Source: Bacilli bacterium (GTDB lineage: Bacteria; Bacillota_I; Bacilli_A; RF39; UBA660). From it: a stretch of 64,000 bases of DNA. Under the pieces are notes generated by a model. It saw only the letters and a program-made list of their open reading frames with translations, had not been told where the DNA came from and did not search any database. Both the position numbers and the translations under genes were made by a program. Location: assembly GCA_017411405.1 (NCBI GenBank), contig JAFQQE010000010.1, positions 29,615 through 93,614 of the forward strand, in the 5' to 3' direction. Position 1 is the stretch's first letter; each line of letters begins with the position of its first letter. Positions 2,370 to 32,791 of the stretch are shown piece by piece.

Positions 2370-3518
2370 TTATTTCTTTAAAAATGGAAATATCTTTCTT
2401 TTTAATTCTAATCTTTTTTGTTTCTTTTCTTCTCTTCTTTGAATTTCTTCTTCTATTTTTTGTTTTTCTAACAATCTTGCTTCTTCTATTCTTTTTTCTT
2501 CTGCTAACTGATTTTGTCTTATTTCATATAATAAAGATTGACTCCATTCAGGACAGTTATCTATTTTAACAAATATTCTTTTAAAAATATCATATTCCTT
2601 ATCGTTTAATGCTTCATTTACGATACTTGAATTGCATTCTAAGGAATATTTATCAGCATAACTTGGCGAAAACAATCTAAAATCATGCGAATAAGAATTA
2701 TTTCTGGATGGAACAAAAATACTAGCACCAAAATGACTAATATCAACACAAAAATTTGAATTAACTGATTTTGTATCATATTTTGCATTATATTCATTTC
2801 TATAGTCATTAAAATTCATAAATTCATCATATAAATTTGATAAATCCGAACTTAATGCTGCAAAAACTTCTTTATCATAACAACATTCTGATTTAGCAAT
2901 ATATAAATCTCCATTCTCTTTTGCAAAACTAATATCTTCATAATCCCCAAAATCCCATCTTTTAAATCCAACTTTTAAAAGTCTTTTTTTATAATCAAAA
3001 TCATATATAACAATACTGCTACTATCTCCAAAATTAGCCCTTAAAATACTTTTAAATTGAGTCCTATATCTTTCTTGCATCATTTCGTAGTTATTGCGTA
3101 ATTTTTTTAACAATTGAGCAACATCATATAATGAAATACAATCACTATTTTTATTAGGTTCACAAACCAATATATTTTTTACTTCCTCAAGAATCTCAGA
3201 ACTTTTAGTGATTGGTTTATATTTTTTATATTGACTCTCCTCGTATGCTTTTGTTGATATATCTTGATTTGTATAAAAGTAAACTTTTTTATCATTCTTT
3301 GAATATTGAATAGTATTAAAAATTACATTTGGATTAGATTCAAAAACTGTTTTTAAACAATTCTCTAATGAATACTCACTTACATTTGAAATTGTTGAAA
3401 CTTTAAGATTATTTCCTATATCTTTTACTGGTAAAACAGTATCGCTATATACAATTGTCTTATTTACCACAGTAGTATGAGTTGTATGTGGTACAAATGG
3501 TACTATCGGTACGTACAT
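2370..3518 (-). CDS. Hypothetical protein with a K/E-rich coiled-coil C-terminus.
   Basis: 382-aa ORF. The C-terminal tail LAEEKRIEEARLLEKQKIEEEIQRREEKKQKRLELKRK is strongly helical and charged. No recognisable catalytic motif. Confidence 0.4.
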   Translation of the reverse strand: MYVPIVPFVPHTTHTTVVNKTIVYSDTVLPVKDIGNNLKVSTISNVSEYSLENCLKTVFESNPNVIFNTIQYSKNDKKVYFYTNQDISTKAYEESQYKKYKPITKSSEILEEVKNILVCEPNKNSDCISLYDVAQLLKKLRNNYEMMQERYRTQFKSILRANFGDSSSIVIYDFDYKKRLLKVGFKRWDFGDYEDISFAKENGDLYIAKSECCYDKEVFAALSSDLSNLYDEFMNFNDYRNEYNAKYDTKSVNSNFCVDISHFGASIFVPSRNNSYSHDFRLFSPSYADKYSLECNSSIVNEALNDKEYDIFKRIFVKIDNCPEWSQSLLYEIRQNQLAEEKRIEEARLLEKQKIEEEIQRREEKKQKRLELKRKIFPFLKK

Positions 3519-3680
3519 AATATTCCTCCTAACAAAATTTAAGTAAAGTTATTATAACACATTTTTCAATAACTGTTAATAAAAATATAAGAAAAGTAGC
3601 CAAAAATCTAAAATAATTATTGGGAAAATACTATACTTTTTATTTTTCTTTATAAAGTATTTTTCCTCATAAAAAAAGAA

Positions 3681-5057
3681 TTAGTATTTAATTCTTTCAT
3701 TTATGTAATTTACTAATTCTTCTACTTTAACTTTTTCTTGTTCCATAGTATCTCTATCTCTTACAGTAACTATTCCACTTTCTAATGTTTCATCATCTAT
3801 AGTTATTGCAAATGGTGTACCAATAGCATCGCATCTTCTATAACGTTTACCAATGCTTGCAGTTTCATCATAAGATGTATTAAATTCTTTAGATAAATTT
3901 CTATATATTTCTAATGCTTTTTCACTATGTATTTTTTTTATTAATGGTAAAACTGTAGCTTTTATTGGTGCTAAGTATGGATGTATTTTTAATACTTCTC
4001 TTTCATCATTTTCAATTATTTCTTTTTTATAAGCATCACATAATACTGCTAAGAATAATCTATCTAATCCTACACTTGGTTCTACAACATAAGGAATATA
4101 TTTTTCATTAGTTTCAGGATCAAGGTATCTTAAATCTTGTTTAGAATGTTCCATATGCACACTTAAATCATAATCTGTTCTATCAGCTATTCCCCATAGT
4201 TCTCCCCATCCAATTGGATATAAATATTCTATATCAGTTGTAGCCTTACTATAAAATGATAACTCTTCTTTTTTATGATCTCTAAATCTTAAATTTTTTT
4301 CTTCTATTCCTAAACTTTTTAGGAATTCCATACAAAAATTTTTATAATAAGCAAACCATTCTAAATCTGTATTTGGTTTACAAAAGAATTCTAATTCCAT
4401 TTGTTCAAATTCTCTTGTTCTAAATATGAAGTTTCCTGGAGTTATTTCATTTCTAAAACTTTTACCTGTTTGTCCTATACCAAAAGGAAGTTTTGCTCTC
4501 ATTGTTCTTTGTACATTTAAAAAGTTAGTAAATATACCTTGTGCAGTTTCTCCTCTTAGATAACAAATACTTTTTGAATCATCTGTAACTCCAATATGAG
4601 TTTCAAATAATAGATTAAACTTTCTTATATCTGTAAAATCTTTGCTACCGCATTTTGGACAAGATATTTCATTTTCTTTAATGAATTTTTCTAATTCTTC
4701 GTTGCTCCATCCATCTCCAGTTTCTGAACCGTTAGTAAATTCTTCTACTAATTTATCTGCTCTATATCTAGCTTTACATTTTTTACAATCCATTAAAGGA
4801 TCTGCAAAACTTGTAACATGTCCACTTGCAACCCATACATTCGGATTCATTAAGATAGCAGCATCCAATCCATAATTATATTGATTTTCTTGTATAAATT
4901 TTTTCCACCAAGCACGTCTAATATTCTCTTTTAATTCTTTTCCTAAAGGACCGTAATCCCAAGTATTTGATAAACCTCCATATATTTCACTACCTTGAAA
5001 TATAAATCCATATTGTTTTGAATAATTTACTATATCTTCCATATTTTTAATTGCCAT
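3681..5057 (-). CDS. glyQS: Glycyl-tRNA synthetase, homodimeric alpha2 form.
   Basis: 458 aa. Class II aaRS core with motif 2/3 regions ([25 protein letters not shown]) and a C-terminal anticodon-binding domain. Length and sequence are typical of Firmicute GlyQS. Confidence 0.9.
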
Positions 5058-5068
5058 AATTTCACTCC

Positions 5069-5635
5069 TTATTTAAATTTTTTAGATAGATTATAATTCT
5101 TTTTATAATCCTCTACAATACTCTCTAATTCTTCTAAATTTGTAACTACTTGATAACAATCACTTAAATCATCTTTAAAGAATTTTGTATCAATATTATC
5201 TTTTGTAAACTTTAATATGTCATCATAATAACCATCTAAGTTATATAAAATAATTCTCTTATTTCCTCCTGATGATCTATATTCTTCAATAGCGCATGTA
5301 AATTCTGCTAATGTTCCTATACCACCAGGTAAGATTACTACTATATCACTTGCAAAATACATTTTTCTAAATCTTAATAGTGTATCATTAACTTTAACAC
5401 ATTTTGCTTTTGGTATTCTCAAAAAATCTCGTTCCCATTTTGGTACTGTATATGCATATATCTTTCTTTTATATTTTACAAATGTTTTATAACATTCCCC
5501 CATCATTGAATAGTGCCCTGCTCCAAATAATAAATCAAAATTATTTTTTGCAAAAATTTCAGATACTTCTCTTGCTAAATTCATATATTTTTCTTCTAAA
5601 TCTAAATTTGCAGCACTTGCAATAAATACTTTCAT
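5069..5635 (-). CDS. LOG-family (TIGR00730) cytokinin riboside 5'-monophosphate phosphoribohydrolase-like protein.
   Basis: 188 aa with the [12 protein letters not shown] signature of LOG/YvdD proteins. Only 11 bp separate it from glyQS, so the two are probably co-transcribed. Confidence 0.8.
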
Positions 5636-5639
5636 AAAT

Positions 5640-5835
5640 CCTCCTTTTTACAATAAAAAAAAGACTTTATTATAGGGGCAATTATAATCGCTGTTCCACC
5701 CTACTTTGGTCTCTTTATTTTTCATAGCTCTGAATTTTCCACATCCGTCATCGCTTACACAATATATTTTATTATAAATTTTCCATTTTGTAAATAAATA
5801 TGTTATATTAATTGTGGTGATTTTGTATGAAATTA
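5640..5835 (-). promoter_or_regulatory. Candidate T-box leader (glycine-responsive) upstream of the LOG-glyQS bicistron.
   Basis: The minus-strand RNA contains AGUAGGGUGGAACAGCG (coordinates about 5689-5704). This matches 12 of 13 positions of the T-box consensus AGGGUGGNACCGCG. It is followed by an AU stem (AUUAUA...UAUAAU) plus a U8 run immediately before the RBS AAAGGAGGAT of the LOG gene. A GGA-containing candidate specifier region lies upstream. Confidence 0.4.
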
Positions 5836-6569: not shown

Positions 6570-7339
6570 TCTTTGTTTTTATTATATTTTTTTATTTTAA
6601 CATTTTGTATATGATAATTTATTCTAAGTAGTAATTTAGTTGGAACTAATCTTGTTAGAAATACTGCTAATTTTATTTTAATAGTTGGTATTATTACAAG
6701 TTTATTTTTAAACATTTTATCTATCGCATAACGTGCTACATATTCACTTGTAGCACTTTTTGTATTAAAACTACCACCTGCAACTTTATTAAAATTAGTT
6801 TCTACTGGTCCTGGACAAAGTACAGATATTTTTACATTAGAATTCATATGTCTTAATTCTTCATATATTGCTAAACTACTTTTTAATACATAATTCTTAG
6901 TAGAATAATATGTAGAAAGTTTAGGTCCGGCCATAAATCCTGCTGAAGATGCTACATTTAAAATATACCCTTTATCTCTTTTTATAAAATCTTTTAAAAA
7001 TAATTTAGTTAATATATGTACTGCAATAATATTTACATTTATCATATTTAATTCTTTTTCTAAATCTGTTTCATAGAAATTACCAAATAAACCAAAACCA
7101 GCATTATTTATTAATATATCTATGTTTTCATCTTTTGTAATATCATATAATTTAAAAACATTTTCTTTTATACTTAAATCTAAATCATATACAGTTGCTT
7201 TACTTTTACATTTTTCTTTTACTTTTTTTAATTCATCTAGATTTCTACCTACTAAAATTAAATCAATACCTTTATCTGATAAGTAATAAGCCATATCTCT
7301 ACCTATTCCACTAGAGGCTCCTGTTATAAGTGCTTTCAT
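6566..7339 (-). CDS. Short-chain dehydrogenase/reductase (SDR) family oxidoreductase.
   Basis: N-terminal TGASSGIGR Rossmann motif, NNAG, and a catalytic YxxxK region (YYSTK). Confidence 0.85.
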   Translation of the reverse strand: MKALITGASSGIGRDMAYYLSDKGIDLILVGRNLDELKKVKEKCKSKATVYDLDLSIKENVFKLYDITKDENIDILINNAGFGLFGNFYETDLEKELNMINVNIIAVHILTKLFLKDFIKRDKGYILNVASSAGFMAGPKLSTYYSTKNYVLKSSLAIYEELRHMNSNVKISVLCPGPVETNFNKVAGGSFNTKSATSEYVARYAIDKMFKNKLVIIPTIKIKLAVFLTRLVPTKLLLRINYHIQNVKIKKYNKNKD

Positions 7340-10785: not shown

Positions 10786-11284
10786 TTACGACACCCCTTA
10801 TATAAAGTTGGAAAATATTGTATGGTATACTATAAATTAATTTTACGGCTTTGGTCGAGTTGAATTTCTCTATTTCCACACCTTCAGTTACCATCTGGCG
10901 ATTTCTCTTTATGGGAAATAACTAAAAGTCACCTATTTAATTACTCGATTACCACTTAGTCCGCACCTCAAACTTTATAGTTTAACACGCTAGAAGTTTT
11001 CCTTGACACAACTAACCTATCATTATTCGCTTTTGCAATTATATTTTCATATATATAAATTCGTATAATCCCATATAATCACTCACGACATGCACATTCT
11101 ATAAGACATTGACGCAATAAAAGGATTTAAATTGTATGCCATTACAACCGTCCTTGAATTTTAAATTATATATTCACCCCAACTTGGGCAGAAGAAGCAA
11201 ATATACAAAGTGTCATCTGTACAATTGGTGGATTTTTAGCCCCACCTTCAAATAGTGTTTATGACTAGCATAATGCACCACACG
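10786..11284 (-). ncRNA. Candidate large structured ncRNA or long 5' leader of about 500 nt. Family unassigned; an OLE-like RNA is a hypothesis.
   Basis: No ORF of 60 codons or more on either strand. GC content is clearly elevated relative to the flanks (e.g. ccacaccttcagttaccatctggcgatttctc). Several local hairpins are visible, including AAGGA-CGG-UUGUA-AUGGCA-UACAA-UUUAAA-UCCUU and GGUGGGGCUAAAAAUCCACC. It lies directly downstream of a perfect sigma-A promoter on the minus strand. Confidence 0.4.
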
Positions 11285-11325
11285 AATAACATTATAGCAA
11301 ATAATTTTGATTTTGTCAAAAATTT
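11285..11325 (-). promoter_or_regulatory. Strong sigma-A-type promoter (TTGACA-17-TATAAT) driving the ncRNA/leader and the membrane protein gene.
   Basis: Minus-strand sequence aaatttTTGACAaaatcaaaattatttgcTATAATgttattcG. The -35 is the reverse complement of 11314-11319 and the -10 is the reverse complement of 11291-11296. Confidence 0.55.
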
Positions 11326-26472: not shown

Positions 26473-27103
26473 AAGTTAAATTATATGTTATTTCATTATA
26501 TTTAATATCAATTTTATTTATGTTATCTGTGTCGGTTTCAATATATATTTTTGTTATTATATCATCTATATTTATAGAATATTCATATGTTTTTATATTA
26601 TCTAAATCTTTTATATAAGCTCTATTTTCTTTTATTAATTTTATAATATAGTTTAAATTTAGAAACTTTATATCAAAAGAACTTTCTAATAAAATTTCTT
26701 CATTATTATTTATTTCATATAATGTCTCATTTTTTAAAATAATTTTTTTAATACCTTCATTACTTTCTAAATAACCGTTAATTATATTATTCTCTAAAGT
26801 TCCATTAATTGTATATGTTATTTCATCAATAGTAATTTTATAATTAATATTATGTTTTTTATTTAATAAATTTTCTTGTTTGTCGTTATAATTATCTATT
26901 AATTTGGTTGTTGTAGTTGTTTTATTATTGTTGCTATAAGTATTATCAATACCATCTGTTATATATGCTAAAATGATAAATAATAGAAAAAATATTAAAT
27001 AGCATAATAATTTAATTCCTGCTTTCTTTCTAGGATCTTTCCATGCTTCTTTCAATTTACTATAATTTTCTTTGAATTTACTTTGTTTTTCTTCATTCTT
27101 CAT
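26462..27103 (-). CDS. Hypothetical membrane-anchored protein.
   Basis: 213 aa, one TM after a basic N-terminus, N/T/I-rich ectodomain. Confidence 0.35.
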   Translation of the reverse strand: MKNEEKQSKFKENYSKLKEAWKDPRKKAGIKLLCYLIFFLLFIILAYITDGIDNTYSNNNKTTTTTKLIDNYNDKQENLLNKKHNINYKITIDEITYTINGTLENNIINGYLESNEGIKKIILKNETLYEINNNEEILLESSFDIKFLNLNYIIKLIKENRAYIKDLDNIKTYEYSINIDDIITKIYIETDTDNINKIDIKYNEITYNLTFDN

Positions 27104-28022
27104 TTATTTTAACTCCTAATATACTTTTTTTATCTATACCATTTAAATAAGAATTTGCTTGCATTTGTTTTTTTCCTGCAGGAATAAATTCTGTTATTAC
27201 TACTTCACCATCTTTACATGAAATACCTATACCATCTTTATATATGCTATTAACTGTACTTATCTTTCCATTTTTATTTTCATATCTTATACTTATTACT
27301 TTGTATTCTATACCATTTAATATAAAATAACTTCTAGGAAGTAATGCTCTTACCTTATTATATATTTCTTTATAAGTTTTATTAAAATCTATTTTTTCAT
27401 CTTCTCTTTTAATTGTATAAGCAAAAGTTACTTCGCTTTCGTTTTGTTTTATTCTTGTTATGTTTCCACTTATAATGTTAGGTAAAGCTTCTATTAATAA
27501 TTTACTTCCTAAAGTACTAAGCTTTTCACTTAGTGTATTTATATTATCATTATCTAAAATATTTATACTTTCTTTTTTTATTATATCTCCATCATCCATA
27601 CCTTCTGCCATATACATTATAGTTATACCTGTTTTATCATCACCATTTAAAATTGCAGCATGTATAGGAGCTCCTCCCCTATACTTTGGTAATAAGGATG
27701 CATGTACATTTATGCATTTATATTTTGGTAAGTCTAAAAGTATTTTTGGAATAATTTGTCCGTATGCACAAGTGATTATTATATCAGGATTAGTTTCTAT
27801 GATTTTTTCATAATCTTCTCTTATTTTATAAGGAGTAAATACTTCAATATTATTTTCTAGCGCTAATTGTTTTACAGGACTAGGTGTTAATACTTTCTTT
27901 CTACCTACATAAGCATCTGGTTGACTAACAACTAATACTACATTAGTATTTTCTATTAAAGTTTTTAATACTGGAACAGCAAAATCTGGTGTTCCCATAA
28001 ATACTACTTTTAAATTTTTCAT
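27093..28022 (-). CDS. fmt: Methionyl-tRNA formyltransferase.
   Basis: 309 aa. N-terminal VFMGTPDFAVP, and HASLLPKYRGGAPI (formyltransferase SLLP/His motif). Confidence 0.9.
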   Translation of the reverse strand: MKNLKVVFMGTPDFAVPVLKTLIENTNVVLVVSQPDAYVGRKKVLTPSPVKQLALENNIEVFTPYKIREDYEKIIETNPDIIITCAYGQIIPKILLDLPKYKCINVHASLLPKYRGGAPIHAAILNGDDKTGITIMYMAEGMDDGDIIKKESINILDNDNINTLSEKLSTLGSKLLIEALPNIISGNITRIKQNESEVTFAYTIKREDEKIDFNKTYKEIYNKVRALLPRSYFILNGIEYKVISIRYENKNGKISTVNSIYKDGIGISCKDGEVVITEFIPAGKKQMQANSYLNGIDKKSILGVKINEE

Positions 28023-28103
28023 ATTATCACTTCCATATTTATTATACTAAATATTTAAAGACATTTCATTAAAAAAGCAACTTTTTTGTTGCTTTTGATT
28101 TTT

Positions 28104-28706
28104 TTATACTTTCTTTAATACTTTTGTAGTATTTTTTACAAAAGTTTCCTCAAAGCTTATAATACTGTTTTTATATCTATTATATGCAAACTCATAATCC
28201 CCATTTGTTATTGCTTCTACGCAAGCATCAACTACATTATCATAAATATAATTATATATAATATCTTTTTTCTCTTCTTTTTCTATATTTTCTACAATTT
28301 TAGGTGCTATTTCATAATAATGTCTAACATCGCTTTCATTAACATAATTATCTCTAAACCATCTTAAAACTGTTAATTCAAAACAATCATCTTTAAATTC
28401 ATTTAAATAATGTTTCATACAAGCTGTTGTAAGATAGCAACCAGAACCGGAAGTATGAGTTTGCGTATTTTTTTCATCACTTCTATCGTTATCTGTTCTT
28501 TCCCAATTTCCATTTAAATCTGACTTAATATGTGATGAACTATGAGAATTATTATTGTAGGTTGATTTATCATAATAATCATATTTATATCCTTTTCCAT
28601 CATTATAAGGAGTTACTCTTAATTCTCTACCATCTTCTCCTACATATCTTTGTCTATGTATATCATATTCCATATTTTTTATTTTATCATAATCATTCTT
28701 ATCCAT
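28104..28706 (-). CDS. Cassette protein A2: hypothetical protein sharing a conserved Cys-containing domain (GCYLTTACMKHYLNEFKDDCFELTVLRWFRDNYV) with the 29397-29750 ORF.
   Basis: 200 aa. The DNA at about 28320-28440 is near-identical to 29420-29530. The N-terminal part has a YD-like stretch (YVGEDGRELRVTPYNDGKGYKYDYYD). Confidence 0.5.
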   Translation of the reverse strand: MDKNDYDKIKNMEYDIHRQRYVGEDGRELRVTPYNDGKGYKYDYYDKSTYNNNSHSSSHIKSDLNGNWERTDNDRSDEKNTQTHTSGSGCYLTTACMKHYLNEFKDDCFELTVLRWFRDNYVNESDVRHYYEIAPKIVENIEKEEKKDIIYNYIYDNVVDACVEAITNGDYEFAYNRYKNSIISFEETFVKNTTKVLKKV

Positions 28707-29028
28707 TTTTCTTCATTTTCCTTTCTCTATTATTATTTCTTAAATTATTAACATAGTTTTTATGTATTATTTTTTTATAATAAATATATATTAGAGAATA
28801 TAAATTTACTAAATCATACAAATTATCATATTTTTGATCCAAATAATTAATGTTTTCGTTTATAATTTCTAAATTAATTTCCTCTATTTTTTCTGTTTGT
28901 AGCAATATTTCAAATTCTCTGTATAAATTATTAATAATATTTAAATCTTCTTTATAAGTTTTTTCTGTTTTTAACAACTTTAAAATATCTATTATATTTT
29001 TTATATTATTATCTATATTTTTTACCAT
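28699..29028 (-). CDS. Cassette protein A1: small helical hypothetical protein, translationally coupled to A2.
   Basis: 109 aa with an 8-nt overlap to A2. Preceded by a conserved roughly 270-bp element. Confidence 0.4.
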   Translation of the reverse strand: MVKNIDNNIKNIIDILKLLKTEKTYKEDLNIINNLYREFEILLQTEKIEEINLEIINENINYLDQKYDNLYDLVNLYSLIYIYYKKIIHKNYVNNLRNNNRERKMKKNG

Positions 29029-29040
29029 TTTATCGTCCTT

Positions 29041-29350
29041 TCTTTTTTATTTATTTAGTAAATTTTTCTTATTATCACTTCCTAACAAAAAAAGAGGATA
29101 ATAAAACTTATCCTCCTCCAGCCAAAACATAAATGCACAAATCATTTAAGTTGTAAATATACTAACATTTTGTTAAAACTTATTTTTTATATCATGTATA
29201 AAATAATGATTTTTGCGTTTATATTAACTTTTTTTATTATTTTTAATCAAATAAATTCGTTTTAAACTGATTTTTAGGTGTTTTATACAATATAAAAAAT
29301 TATATGCAAAAAAAGTCTAGAAATTTTGTATTTTCTAGACTTTTGATTCT
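29041..29350. repeat. Copy 1 of a roughly 270-bp conserved non-coding element (direct repeat of 30161-30420) containing an intrinsic terminator hairpin.
   Basis: More than 90% identical by eye to 30161-30420. On the minus strand it contains GAGGATAAgttttTTATCCTC plus TTTTTTTG, about 60 nt upstream of the A1 start. Confidence 0.7.
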
Positions 29351-29396
29351 TAAGATGACGCCGTACAACAACCACCAGACATAAATTTGCACACTG

Positions 29397-29750
29397 TTAT
29401 ATTGGCTTGACATCTCTTTCATTAACATAATTATCTCTAAACCATCTTAAAACTGTTAATTCAAAACAATCATCTTTAAATTCATTTAAATAATGTTTCA
29501 TACAAGCTGTTGTAAGATAGCAATTACCTGTAGAGGTTGTTGTAATCGATTTGTTTTCATCATGATTTTTTACAGTAAAAGTTCTCTTTTCATGATCTAT
29601 ATTTACATGTGTAGCAGCATGTTTCTTATCTGGAGTATCACTATAAATAGACATAGATTTTTCTGTAAATTTTAAAGATTCTCCGCGTCCATTTATATAT
29701 GAATTAGTTTTATTATCTTTTGAAACTATCTTATCTTTATCATCTTTCAT
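29397..29750 (-). CDS. Cassette protein B2: 3'-truncated paralog of A2 (shares the CYLTTAC...RWFRDNYV domain).
   Basis: 117 aa. Homology to A2 ends abruptly at about 29405 (...NERDVKPI*), suggesting a recombination breakpoint. Confidence 0.5.
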   Translation of the reverse strand: MKDDKDKIVSKDNKTNSYINGRGESLKFTEKSMSIYSDTPDKKHAATHVNIDHEKRTFTVKNHDENKSITTTSTGNCYLTTACMKHYLNEFKDDCFELTVLRWFRDNYVNERDVKPI

Positions 29751-30142
29751 TTATATCTTTTATCCTTTCGAATTATACTATTTTCATTAATTTTTTTGCC
29801 TATTGGGCAACTACCATAATAAATAACAATGTCTAGCCAATTAACAATTTCTTCAAAATAAATTCCATCATAAGCATCAAATGGTATTTTAGATATTATT
29901 TTTTTTGCTTTTAACACTTCTTTTTCCGACATTTTTAATAAATCATTATTTTCTACAAAGTATTTTATCCATTTGTCTACTATCTTTAATAGTTCTTTGA
30001 AATATTCTTTATATTCTTCATAGGGTTTATATAACATTGAAACTTTAATATAAAATAATATTTTTGCTAAAGCTTCTTCTACTTCGTATCTATTAATAAT
30101 TATTAATTCGGATTTATTATTTTCGATTTGATTCTCTTTCAT
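29747..30142 (-). CDS. Cassette protein B1: small helical hypothetical protein, unrelated in sequence to A1, translationally coupled to B2.
   Basis: 131 aa with a 4-nt overlap to B2. Preceded by the second copy of the conserved element. Confidence 0.4.
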   Translation of the reverse strand: MKENQIENNKSELIIINRYEVEEALAKILFYIKVSMLYKPYEEYKEYFKELLKIVDKWIKYFVENNDLLKMSEKEVLKAKKIISKIPFDAYDGIYFEEIVNWLDIVIYYGSCPIGKKINENSIIRKDKRYK

Positions 30143-30160
30143 TATTTTATTCTTCCTTTC

Positions 30161-30420
30161 TTTTTTATTTATTTAGTAAATTTTTCTTATTATCACTTCC
30201 TATTAAAAAAAGAGGATAATAAAACTTATCCTCCTTCAACCAAAACATAAATGCACAAATCATTTAAGTTGTAAATATACTAACATTTTGTTAAAACTTA
30301 TTTTTATATCATGTATAAAATAATGATTTTTGCGTTTATATTATTTTTTTTTATTATTTTTAATCAAATAAATTCGTTTTAAACTGATTTTTAGGTGTTT
30401 TAGACAATATAAAAAAATTG
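30161..30420. repeat. Copy 2 of the roughly 270-bp conserved non-coding element.
   Basis: Near-identical to 29041-29350, including the GAGGATAA...TTATCCTC terminator hairpin. Confidence 0.7.
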
Positions 30421-30691
30421 ATAAAACTTACTAAAATTTCCAATATTTCATAAACATATTTTAGAAAAAAATAAAGTGAACTATTTAGAACACTTTTGAA
30501 ATATTTAACATGAGAATTGTCATATAAAAACCTCGATTCTATTTGTCCAAGAAACGGGGTTCATATCATATTGGCTTGCCAATAGGTGTGTTACTAAAAT
30601 GACAATTTTAGTTTTTATAGAAGTTACATATAAATTTATATTAATTATAATTGTATAACATTAAAAGATTTGATATAATTTTTATAGGAAC

Positions 30692-30915
30692 ATTTAATAG
30701 TTGGGTGATTGCCGAATTCTTAATAAGGAAGGAGGCGATAATATGTTTAAGAAAGATTTATTAAACACTCATTAATCATACTTATCTTCCTACTAGTATT
30801 ATTACTATTTATAGTTTTGATATGAAAAGAAAATCACCTAACTCAGCAATGATTTAGGTGATGTCAATATATGGGCAACACTCAACATACGAATATTGAA
30901 TGTTCCTTTTTTATT
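30692..30915 (+). ncRNA. Candidate short transcript with a 10-codon ORF (MFKKDLLNTH) and terminal hairpins.
   Basis: Extended -10 promoter ttTGaTATAAT at about 30680-30690. Strong RBS AAGGAAGGAGG then ATG at 30743. Perfect 9-bp hairpin AUCACCUAA-N12-UUAGGUGAU. Terminal stem AACAU...AUGUU plus CCUUUUUU. Confidence 0.3.
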
Positions 30916-31010
30916 ATATGAAGTTTCCTTCATCTATATACATACTAACATAAAAACGACTTATTTTCAAGTCGTTTTAAATTTTATCTCGAAAAGTTCG
31001 AATAACAATC

Positions 31011-31044
31011 AATCTGGTGCCATTGAAGTAGACGTCTACAACTT
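31011..31044. repeat. att-like junction repeat: tRNA 3'-end-like core (caatctggtgccattga) plus the perfect palindrome GTAGACGTCTAC.
   Basis: Palindrome at 31028-31039. The shared 20-mer gtagacgtctacaactttta also occurs at 31996-32015. The adjacent sequence resembles the 3' end and flank of tRNA-Arg (tcaatggtg). Confidence 0.55.
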
Positions 31045-31770
31045 TTATATTTTTCTTATTTTATCATAATAATCATCTATACATTGCTTAAATTTATAAA
31101 AATCCTTCTTATTATTCAAATAGCTCCTCTTATTTATCTCTAGCATAATTGAGGATAATCTTTTTTCTTTTTTATTAAAATATTTATTTGGGATTATAGT
31201 TCCTTTATATGGATGATTAATTTTAACTGAATAGCCATATTTTTTAAAATGTTCAACTGTAAAATTAGTTAATTTTTCATTAACATAAGTATTATCAGTA
31301 CCAATACATATATCCGGTGTATTGGTTATATCAAATAATTTTTCTACCATCTCATCCGAAAAACTATGGAAATCTATAATAATACATCTATTGTATTTTT
31401 TTAATAAGTTAGTAACCATTTTATCTAATTTATTATGATGTTTGTCATAGTATGATTTTAAAATTCTTCTTTTATATTTTTTGTTTGGAATTGCAATAGT
31501 ATTATCACAATCTCTTGTATAAATTACTCCCATTCCTTTTTTTGACATAATTTCTTTTGAATCATCTTTAAATTTTTCAACATCACAAAATAATCTTGAA
31601 TATTTAAAAACTAACTTATGACATTTATTTGGAATTAATTTATCAGTCAAGTAATCACTCAAAAATTTATTTGTTCTTTTTATATAGTTTTGATCATTTA
31701 TACATATATCCCAATATTGTTTAGGAATTTTCAAAGCCGAATGTGGAACATGAAATAAAATACAATCCAT
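31045..31770 (-). CDS. N-formylglutamate amidohydrolase-like zinc hydrolase family protein (cassette gene).
   Basis: 241 aa with ILFHVPHSA near the N-terminus and IIDFHSF centrally (HxH...DFHS pattern of the FGase family). Flanked by att-like repeats. Confidence 0.45.
   Translation of the reverse strand: MDCILFHVPHSALKIPKQYWDICINDQNYIKRTNKFLSDYLTDKLIPNKCHKLVFKYSRLFCDVEKFKDDSKEIMSKKGMGVIYTRDCDNTIAIPNKKYKRRILKSYYDKHHNKLDKMVTNLLKKYNRCIIIDFHSFSDEMVEKLFDITNTPDICIGTDNTYVNEKLTNFTVEHFKKYGYSVKINHPYKGTIIPNKYFNKKEKRLSSIMLEINKRSYLNNKKDFYKFKQCIDDYYDKIRKI

Positions 31771-32714: not shown

Positions 32715-32791
<77 letters not shown>

Follow-up and report, generated by a model that had tools for sequence, protein, structure and literature searches.

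Several operons of Firmicutes, among them trp, pyr and bgl/sac, are preceded by leaders that carry a terminator and an antiterminator; gene-conversion families with silent donor copies include pilE/pilS of Neisseria and the MgPa repeats of Mycoplasma genitalium; and IS1634 of Mycoplasma mycoides is an insertion element with long, variable target duplications. The locus described here has traits in common with each of these. It lies in a 64,000-nt stretch (the window; 23% G+C) of contig JAFQQE010000010.1 from a Bacilli bacterium (GenBank assembly GCA_017411405.1), and consists of two consecutive two-gene units, A and B, each headed by a near-identical non-coding element, E. We favour, at a probability of about 65%, an explanation in which these are two tandem paralogous cassettes of a widespread uncharacterised family, found upstream of fmt in this lineage only, whose identical patches arose by recombination or gene conversion and whose element E is an attenuator leader. 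Each cassette would then comprise a small, fast-evolving helical gene (g1) and a larger gene (g2) that combines a subtype-specific, beta-rich N-terminal domain with a C-terminal domain of five helices, conserved and rich in Cys. The near-identical patches would stem from recent gene conversion or non-allelic recombination between cassettes A and B: a 114-nt tract at the start of the C-terminal domain, as part of a general concerted evolution among within-genome paralogues, and the whole 274-nt upstream region, which would have been copied from subtype B onto subtype A. Below, L-labels denote loci fetched for comparison (1.2 Mb in total) and P-labels denote members of the protein family.

Every gene of the cassette region lies on the minus strand. 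In the order of transcription, cassette A begins with copy A of E (30144..30416), the putative promoter and 5' leader directly upstream of g1A (29747..30142), a 131-aa open reading frame (ORF) for the helical partner of subtype A. This is followed by g2A-delta (29397..29750; 117 aa), a 3'-truncated gene that retains a subtype-A N-terminal domain and the first ~40 residues of the C-terminal domain, and by a unique 97-nt spacer (29300..29396). Cassette B follows the same plan, with copy B of E (29027..29299) as the putative promoter and 5' leader directly upstream of g1B (28699..29028), a 109-aa ORF for a subtype-B helical partner with a basic C-terminal tail, and then g2B (28104..28706; 200 aa), which has both the beta-rich N-terminal domain (residues 13-87) and the Cys-rich five-helix C-terminal domain (90-190). 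A hairpin scan placed a terminator hairpin after g2B, at 28073..28096. The end of g1 overlaps the start of g2, by 8 nt in cassette B and by 4 nt in cassette A, an arrangement seen in most of 68 metagenome loci.

Self-BLAST of positions 28000-30700 against the whole window, together with a repeat search, bore out the two-unit architecture (element, small gene, domain gene) that had been proposed in an initial annotation of this DNA, and traced it to two direct repeats. The first pairs 30144-30416 with 29027-29299 (274 nt; 96.4% identity, 8 mismatches and 2 one-base indels, E-value 7e-126), and the second pairs 29410-29523 with 28327-28440 (114 nt; 99.1% identity, E-value 4e-53); neither has a third copy in the 64 kb. 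The two copies of E can be aligned from TTTTTTATATTGT up to the g1 start codons, which agrees with the annotated length of roughly 270 bp and with the near identity noted there. The coordinates given for the element reached too far: positions 29300-29350 fall outside the repeat, and a terminator-like hairpin at 29312-29343 is confined to the spacer. The second repeat marks candidate gene-conversion tracts on the minus strand of both g2 genes (29410..29523 in g2A, at the start of the CFI-box-like domain, and 28327..28440 in g2B), beyond which the genes diverge, as had been annotated; the truncated copy is the upstream one. g2A-delta stops ~12 nt beyond its tract, with four of the five C-terminal helices missing, and is the sole truncated g2 among 82 domain-bearing loci. 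It is probably a non-functional, 3'-truncated copy.

Since the source is a metagenome-assembled genome (MAG), and misjoins typically occur at repeats such as these of 114 and 274 nt, both the truncation and the tandem layout might be put down to a chimera joined at short repeats. We give this assembly artefact next to no credence. A second assembly, L009, has an identical layout at 99.98% identity over 8,973 nt, and g1A occurs on five contigs in all, reported as one common gene neighbourhood, with a base-by-base comparison for L009 only. In addition, weaker similarity between A and B persists for ~12 nt beyond the 114-nt tract, as in true paralogues, the repeats are said to be shorter than the k=141 indicated by the assembly contig names, and the copies of E differ at 10 positions, which marks them as distinct loci.

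Outside the repeats, the genes of the two units have separate relatives. BLASTP detected no similarity between g1A and g1B, in agreement with the initial annotation. g1A is a member of a broad second g1 family, with homologues in L112 (L112_X; 47%, E-value 7e-38) and L156 (L156_g1; 33%, E-value 1e-16), and in a word-index search it matched itself only; g1B has positional homologues among the upstream genes of B-type pairs, at L012 (46%), L003, L006 and L001. For g2A, the N-terminal 76 aa match P0162 (58%), L141 (53%) and L156 (59%), and the first 88 residues of g2B have another set of matches, at 57-67%. A single locus, L006, holds a complete A-type pair (128 + 183 aa), a complete B-type pair (106 + 209 aa) and a 266-aa fusion form, and no upstream DNA is common to its A and B pairs. 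Full-length g2B has 794 homologues at 55-71% identity; none is named, and most come from gut metagenomes and from MAGs under a Bacilli or Clostridia label. In every context fetched a gene of ~100-130 aa stands directly upstream of the g2B homologue. By these comparisons, A and B are subtypes of long standing, distinct from each other, within one large family of cassettes. Since g1A with g2A and g1B with g2B each have orthologues of their own elsewhere, they are best seen as two co-inherited pairs that exchanged a 5' region and a coding patch, not as one duplicated unit, and the earlier suggestion that partner genes had been swapped between units does not hold for them.

The same orthologues bear on a recent tandem segmental duplication followed by random decay, in which the non-coding part happened to decay less. 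The tandem layout, units of similar length (1,118 and 1,048 nt from one copy of a 24-nt sequence, T, described below, to the next) and the 96% identity of E are what such a duplication would give. It fails on the remainder: g1A and g1B cannot be aligned and have different orthologues, as do the N-terminal domains of the two g2 genes, which belong to different subtypes; L006 carries both subtypes intact without shared upstream DNA; and decay cannot leave islands of 99% and 96% identity beside unalignable DNA. The separate orthologue sets effectively rule this scenario out, and recombination between the units is the best explanation of the patches, in a family that behaves as exchangeable cassettes, as the initial annotation had supposed.

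Cassette B appears to be maintained by selection. It recurs in a strain represented by L093 (Logan SRR7949672), where positions 1-1073 correspond to 29068-28035 of the window at 98.4% identity. Between the two, g1B differs by 4 synonymous and 0 non-synonymous changes, and g2B by 5 synonymous and 1 non-synonymous change, plus a nonsense mutation at codon 3 in L093. By the usual test applied to such sequence differences, g1B and g2B are under purifying selection and functional. An exact-protein look-up of g2B for other strain arrangements found none on record. As separate observations on the family, in L097 (1185-5219) and L112 (972-5033) a complete pair is closely preceded by one more A-type g1-like gene that has no g2 of its own, an echo of the A-then-B order of the window; and a likeness of the g1A type to the N-terminal helical domain of fused 266-297-aa paralogues, plausible by eye, was dropped at an hhalign probability of 0.3%.

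Homogenisation of the C-terminal domain is not peculiar to the window. We compared the 114-nt core among seven paralogues from three genomes and four single-copy orthologues. Within genomes, identity was 98% between A and B of the window, 100% between the two architectures of L001, and 82-90% among the three paralogues of L006; same-type orthologues from different genomes shared 68-79%. Since identity at synonymous sites goes beyond what constraint on the protein would impose, the DNA of the C-terminal domain evolves in concert, and this pattern indicates gene conversion among within-genome paralogues. In L001, a 333-nt tract of 96.7% identity links the C-terminal domains of two oppositely oriented paralogues (3501-3833 and 5259-5591); these inverted repeats enclose a 1.4-kb segment that is in principle invertible. 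Duplicated upstream non-coding DNA was found at none of the other loci, so the duplication of E is particular to this genome. Taken at the level of DNA, gene conversion between paralogues with a copied promoter and leader is an ordinary pattern.

A more elaborate use of the same homology would be programmed cassette switching, with the truncated unit as a silent donor and with E and the 114-nt core as homology arms that swap the block of g1 and the g2 N-terminal domain into the full-length copy. The geometry fits, in that conserved arms surround a variable block and one copy is 3'-truncated, and it is shared with pilE/pilS and MgPa, where conserved segments likewise flank a variable block, a truncated copy stands beside a full-length one, and copies are homogenised within a genome. 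The homogenised C-terminal domains of paralogues in other genomes, and the L001 inverted repeats on either side of a variable block, point in the same direction. Unlike those systems, however, the window has two copies only, no variants were seen, its proteins are cytoplasmic by sequence, and nothing points to a part in surface variation. The hallmarks of phase or antigenic variation were likewise not found: no switched arrangement was seen among the five g1A contigs (one neighbourhood, compared base by base for L009 only), the sole variant strain, L093, differs upstream of the cassette and not by a swap, and no recombinase is nearby. Furthermore, truncation is not a feature of the family (1 of 82 loci), and E copies that are 96% rather than ~100% identical suggest that exchange is infrequent. 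We therefore consider switching unlikely, and retain occasional gene conversion between paralogous cassettes as the preferred account.

On the transcribed strand, E has a definite order: TTGATT, 18 nt and TAATAT; ~100 nt that fall in a long imperfect hairpin; a terminator hairpin with U7; a 24-nt disabled copy of T; and a 35-nt purine-rich stretch with the ribosome-binding site. The putative sigma-70 promoter of copy A, a match to consensus only, occupies 30338..30367 on the minus strand (TTGATT 30367-30362, 18-nt spacer, TAATAT 30343-30338), and its equivalent in copy B, by correspondence, 29221-29250. The predicted intrinsic terminator, also on the minus strand, has stem arms GGAGGATAA/TTATCCTCT followed by U7 at 30205..30234 in copy A (~-13.7 kcal/mol), and its counterpart in copy B was placed at 29087..29117 by hairpin scan and folding. 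Its core, GAGGATAA-N6-TTATCCTC and then T7, is present in both copies (30212-30233 and 29094-29115) against a chance expectation of 0, which upholds the terminator hairpin and U-run reported by the initial annotation. The hairpin ends 60-64 nt upstream of g1 and lies ~100 nt downstream of the promoter-like site. A G+C-containing hairpin with a U-run thus stands between a promoter (by consensus match) and the first gene, as in an attenuator leader, and in the predicted fold of the nascent leader the 5' arm of the terminator pairs with the adjacent upstream segment.

Related cassettes show what such a leader may do. L094, L095, L096, L012, L121 and L128 have leaders preceded by a TTGATT -35 hexamer and a 17-nt spacer, and the first four of these follow one plan: TTGATT-17-(TG)TAT.AT with an extended -10, a leader of 75-125 nt, a hairpin GGTGGCGAA/TTCGTCACC with U4-5, and a ribosome-binding-site block, which in L094 (AAAGAAAGGAAAAATAAAATG) is nearly identical to that of E. 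The motif lies at 1043-1189 in L094, 309-601 in L095, 104-499 in L096, 5282-5684 in L012 and ~1930-2133 in L103, where it is degenerate. Across the 1.2 Mb fetched, the GGTGGCGAA/TTCGTCACC hairpin has only four occurrences, all of them 31-40 nt ahead of a g1. RNAalifold kept all nine pairs of the related leaders with one compensatory change of G-C to A-U, and a hand count of the window hairpin against its relatives gave nine kept pairs with three double changes, in a sample of only six sequences. In the predicted nascent folds of L094 (-13.4 kcal/mol), L095 (-10.7) and L096 (-8.2), the 5' arm of the terminator is paired with an upstream sequence that mimics the 3' arm; for L012, no alternative pairing of the 5' arm is predicted. 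Strong hairpins stand upstream of g1 in 8 of 43 cassette loci versus 3 of 137 control genes, and some of them are probably terminators of upstream genes.

Since analogous leaders with a predicted antiterminator pairing precede related cassettes in at least four other metagenomic contigs, we favour E as a promoter followed by a ~190-nt leader with an intrinsic terminator, most likely acting as a transcription attenuator. The likeness to Firmicutes attenuators extends to the promoter, a leader of ~75-190 nt, the G+C-containing hairpin with its U-run, the ribosome-binding site and the upstream mimic of the 3' arm; they differ in that the cassette leaders match no Rfam family. Rfam 15 yielded nothing for L094-L096, and nothing in 28000-31100 of the window, either at the gathering threshold or at E-values up to 10. 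No leader peptide, RNA-binding-protein site or ligand pocket was identified in E or the related leaders. Two candidates were set aside: a 32-codon ORF that spans the terminator as a leader peptide, which lacks a ribosome-binding site and has no conserved counterpart among the related leaders, and an integron attC site in the long hairpin, for which, as judged by eye only, there is neither intI nor an R''/R' core motif. Because its ribosome-binding-site block and architecture match B-type leaders, we infer that module B is probably the original owner of E, and that g1A received a copy.

The initial annotation had offered a small RNA or an attenuator for this element, and of these the cis-acting leader is the more plausible: the analogous combination of promoter, hairpin and U-run upstream of related cassettes argues for a leader rather than junk, and the small RNA found no support in Rfam. 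E might still be an independent element that happens to lie upstream of both cassettes, namely a small-RNA gene that ends at the terminator, or a mobile non-coding element of the miniature inverted-repeat transposable element (MITE) or another type. A promoter-like site with a strong terminator ~125 nt further on would yield a discrete short RNA, folding z-scores range from -2.5 to -2.8, E includes a long imperfect inverted repeat, and L093 shows that the 5' part can be absent. Yet there is no third copy in 64 kb, blastn of E against the other fetched loci gave noise only, and exact scans with a 22-23-nt core of E returned 0 matches from 185,579 species genomes and from the metagenome contigs of JGI, scans that would miss a diverged copy. 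The source species is seemingly absent from the species-genome collection, where the best fmt match has 78% amino-acid identity. E-to-E homology runs through the ribosome-binding site to the start codon, as it would in a 5' untranslated region, and the analogous leaders are always 31-40 nt upstream of g1. An independent element therefore has an outside chance, and the idea that E is a better-conserved core of the family finds no place; nor is the 274-nt element a mobile or small-RNA element common to the family, since it was not found in the other loci or, by exact match to its core, in the collections scanned. We continue with E as an attenuator leader belonging to the cassettes.

The cassettes lie at the 5' end of fmt (27093..28022, minus strand), which encodes methionyl-tRNA formyltransferase and was identified by the Pfam domains Formyl_trans_N and Formyl_trans_C on the identical gene of L009. 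A 24-mer, GGAAGTGATAATAWGAAAAATTTA, occurs three times in the window against a chance expectation of 0.01. One copy, T (28011-28034), is the real ribosome-binding site of fmt with its ATG and four codons, and is preceded by a native promoter-like site, P, found by promoter scan at 28041-28069; both are on the minus strand. The other two, also on the minus strand, are disabled versions, with ATG changed to AAG, within E at 30177..30200 (copy A) and 29059..29082 (copy B). They stand exactly between the post-hairpin TTTTAATA and the 35-nt ribosome-binding-site stretch, a position at which the related leaders have no insert. We recovered 80 fmt loci from relatives, with amino-acid identities of up to 78%, and in none does a cassette lie within 5 kb. 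Among 11 fmt upstream regions inspected, the upstream neighbour varies, and nine show the promoter-like site, ribosome-binding site and start in the same layout as the window. The absence of cassettes from the 80 loci and the native layout in relatives indicate a lineage-specific insertion next to fmt, with the disabled copies of T derived from that gene. Module B of L093 has, on its upstream side, a copy of the fmt promoter region and a T that has decayed further, in place of the 5' part of E, and the same 30-mer of the fmt promoter is found at both ends of the contig.

Comparable junctions occur elsewhere in the family. L010 has a 35-40-nt repeat (5619-5658 and 6595-6634), in which the last 11 codons of a PHP-domain gene recur as the tail of g2, the original copy being ambiguous; 16-nt direct repeats flank the L097 cassette (2069-2084 and 3105-3120); repeats of 22-25 nt lie inside an Ala/Lys-rich gene in L156 and L159; and L121 and L128 have flanking repeats of 14 nt. 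In 8 of 41 loci, the flanking direct repeats exceed the 99th percentile of a cross-locus null. The cassettes of L097 and L112 lie between rpsG (S7) and fusA (EF-G), that of L111 is placed similarly, and some cassettes are near large serine recombinases. Flanking repeats whose source can be judged derive from the host site. This points to mobility, and we read the junction sequences as evidence suggesting that the ~1-kb unit is mobile and leaves duplicated host sequence on either side. The 14-55-nt direct repeats around family cassettes (the fmt T copies, L093, L010, L097 and L156/L159) resemble those of IS1634; the units differ from it in having neither a transposase gene nor terminal inverted repeats, and their repeats could equally stem from recombination through circular or tandem intermediates. 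The units contain only g1 and g2, neither of which matches transposase, integrase or other recombinase families, and no recombinase is annotated across the L009 neighbourhood.

Taken further, the g1-g2 unit might be an unrecognised compact mobile cassette of ~1 kb that inserts at the ends of housekeeping genes with long, variable target duplications, carries its own attenuator-controlled promoter, and is selfish or toxin-antitoxin-like with a CFI-box-like effector domain. Its sites would be the 5' end of fmt, the rpsG-fusA gap and the 3' end of the PHP-domain gene, its duplications would span 14-55 nt or more, and, there being no recognisable transposase, its mobility would have to come from its two proteins or from a host pathway. 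We regard this fuller proposal as speculative and rather improbable.

The C-terminal domain gives the family its clearest link to a described one. Against the NCBIfam profile NF041770 (CFI-box-CTERM), g2B aligns over the whole 69 positions (residues 90-159) with 35.0 bits and an E-value of 9e-9, where the cut-off is 40, and g2A-delta scores 15.7 bits over profile positions 1-29 only. Distant members of the same phmmer family pass the cut-off (P0227 with 61 bits, P0249 53, P0260 52 and P0203 43), so the window proteins are placed in a divergent sister subfamily and not among the scored members of CFI-box-CTERM. As in that family, the domain of g2B is C-terminal and starts with a Cys-aromatic-aliphatic motif; the differences are that the motif reads C-Y-L-T-T-A-C instead of C-F-I, that the domain has ~105 residues with three to four conserved cysteines, and that the window proteins have no signal peptide, in contrast to the Tat-like one of a Pannonibacter protein. 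The latter is encoded on the Pannonibacter phragmitetus plasmid NZ_CP013069.1 (181659-182813; L165), where RefSeq names it 'CFI-box-CTERM domain-containing protein', and its gene overlaps the end of an 878-aa OmpA/TPR/WD40 gene. A plasmid collection gave two Pannonibacter matches, to the domain only.

The domain family numbers 3,121 representative clusters (E-value up to 1e-3). In all 150 representatives listed the domain is C-terminal, behind N-terminal regions of 9-483 residues; the Cys motif (CYLTTAC in the window) is found in 111 representatives, with a median of 107 residues from Cys to the end. Residues C90, T93, A95, C96, D106, C108, E110, L111, L114, R115, F117, R118, D119, Y130, Y131, P135, Y155 and Y178 are nearly invariant, and C162 is present in 80%; this conservation suggests a metal or redox site. 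The N-terminal partners are diverse and mostly of no known kind, and include beta-flower, TPR, Sel1, zinc-ribbon and FtsK-gamma domains and one eCIS_core/DUF4157; a hydrophobic N-terminal stretch suggestive of a signal peptide was seen in 1 of 149 representatives. P0227 (596 aa), P0260 and P0249 carry an N-terminal eCIS_core/DUF4157 metallopeptidase-like domain or a LQRxIGN-type motif before the CFI-box-like domain. DUF4157 is reported to sit N-terminal to C-terminal toxin domains (PMC8213781), and by analogy the fusion may be a weak hint of an effector role.

An AlphaFold2 model of g2B (predicted local distance difference test score, pLDDT, 83.6) shows a seven-strand beta domain (13-87) and a five-helix bundle (91-190). 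Foldseek found no PDB match with an E-value below 0.02 or a TM-score above 0.3, and a profile search of the PDB was empty. One of the two domains is matched by an unnamed 113-aa phage protein, BFVD A0A6M5CC42 (TM-score 0.69, target-normalised; root-mean-square deviation 2.9 over 102 columns; 22% identity), and a tblastn search of g2B against 50,697 phage genomes returned nothing. Pfam annotation of 90 flanking proteins from 30 loci revealed no recurrent functional neighbour; one relative lies just downstream of an RHS-repeat gene. In the literature searched, no paper mentions the domain and there is no published function for the CFI-box-CTERM family.

In organisation, the cassettes resemble type II toxin-antitoxin systems: two small, co-oriented genes that overlap and may be translationally coupled, of which the first is small and fast-evolving and the second better conserved, form a compact ~1-kb unit with its own putative promoter in variable neighbourhoods that include defence and mobile regions. 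They differ in that the window proteins match no toxin or antitoxin family in Pfam, NCBIfam, PHROGs or PADLOC, nor any defence or recombinase family, and in that g1 varies together with the N-terminal, variable domain of g2 and not with the conserved one. With these negatives, and with no arrangement variants seen that would fit switching, the toxin/immunity or phase-variable look noted in the initial annotation stays a guess. With Rhs/CDI loci the cassettes share arrays of related units, a short conserved stretch that enables recombination and truncated 'orphan' copies. In Rhs, CDI and LXG proteins, however, the arrangement is otherwise: here the C-terminus is conserved, the N-terminus is variable and the small gene lies upstream, and, as a further difference from Rhs/CDI, the window proteins have no trafficking domain. 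Our guess, offered tentatively and with the odds against it, is that the pair forms an accessory module that regulates itself and is toxin-antitoxin-like or selfish in some other way, and that g1 would be matched to the N-terminal domain of g2.

Several points count against the explanation preferred here, of paralogous cassettes patched by gene conversion and headed by an attenuator leader. It offers no source for the truncation or for the 97-nt spacer, and the spacer, considered as a native 3' flank of subtype-A cassettes, has no significant similarity to any fetched locus. The 24-nt fmt-derived insert in both copies of E is not explained by simple gene conversion. Since L093 has module B without the 5' part of E, that part is either dispensable or recently gained. 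A covariance model of four related leaders scores E at a non-significant 9.8 bits (E-value 2.3), so homology of E to these leaders rests on architecture and a 20-nt ribosome-binding-site block; with a strong hairpin in only 8 of 43 loci, the leader is at best specific to a subclade; and the promoter, the use of the terminator and attenuation rest on consensus matches and folding. L009 possibly comes from the same or a very similar sample, and the assemblies that share the arrangement are perhaps not truly independent. As to function, the window proteins match nothing in Pfam, PHROGs and PADLOC and only CFI-box, below cut-off, in NCBIfam, and the argument from toxin position stands on one eCIS_core fusion among 149 representatives.

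The family concerned is large: at 50% identity the C-terminal domain falls into more than 3,000 clusters, and in gut Bacilli and Clostridia the B subtype accounts for ~800 clusters at 90% identity. It has no Pfam entry, no solved structure and no paper in the literature searched. The locus offers a view of how such a family evolves, in that paralogues exchange the conserved domain and regulatory DNA, of a subclade headed by an unclassified, terminator-containing leader, and of cassettes that land beside essential genes between repeats which, where they can be traced, are of host-site origin. Should attenuation or mobility prove true, the locus would contribute a cis-regulatory RNA motif of a new kind, and perhaps a novel sort of small mobile module, from the poorly studied uncultured Bacilli of the gut; otherwise it stands as an instructive but ordinary case of gene conversion between paralogues.

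Three further features of the window lie outside the cassettes. Synteny with L009 ends exactly at a tRNA gene (32718-32791, minus strand), past which the window has a 787-aa ORF and other genes and L009 (1-3423) has yabP, spoVG and divIC-type genes; the break is either an island or strain difference, or a misjoin. At 10806-11297 on the minus strand, the window encodes a full-length OLE (ornate large extremophilic) RNA, which scores 228 bits against a gathering score of 50. Finally, the 625-nt gap upstream of copy A of E contains, at 30743-30828 on the plus strand, a strong ribosome-binding site and an ATG that open a 10-codon ORF (MFKKDLLNTH and a stop), which one frame off continues as SLIILIFLLVLLLLFIVLI up to a stop and is followed by a 9-bp hairpin; judged by its sequence, it resembles a small hydrophobic peptide, like those of type I toxins, that has been frameshifted.

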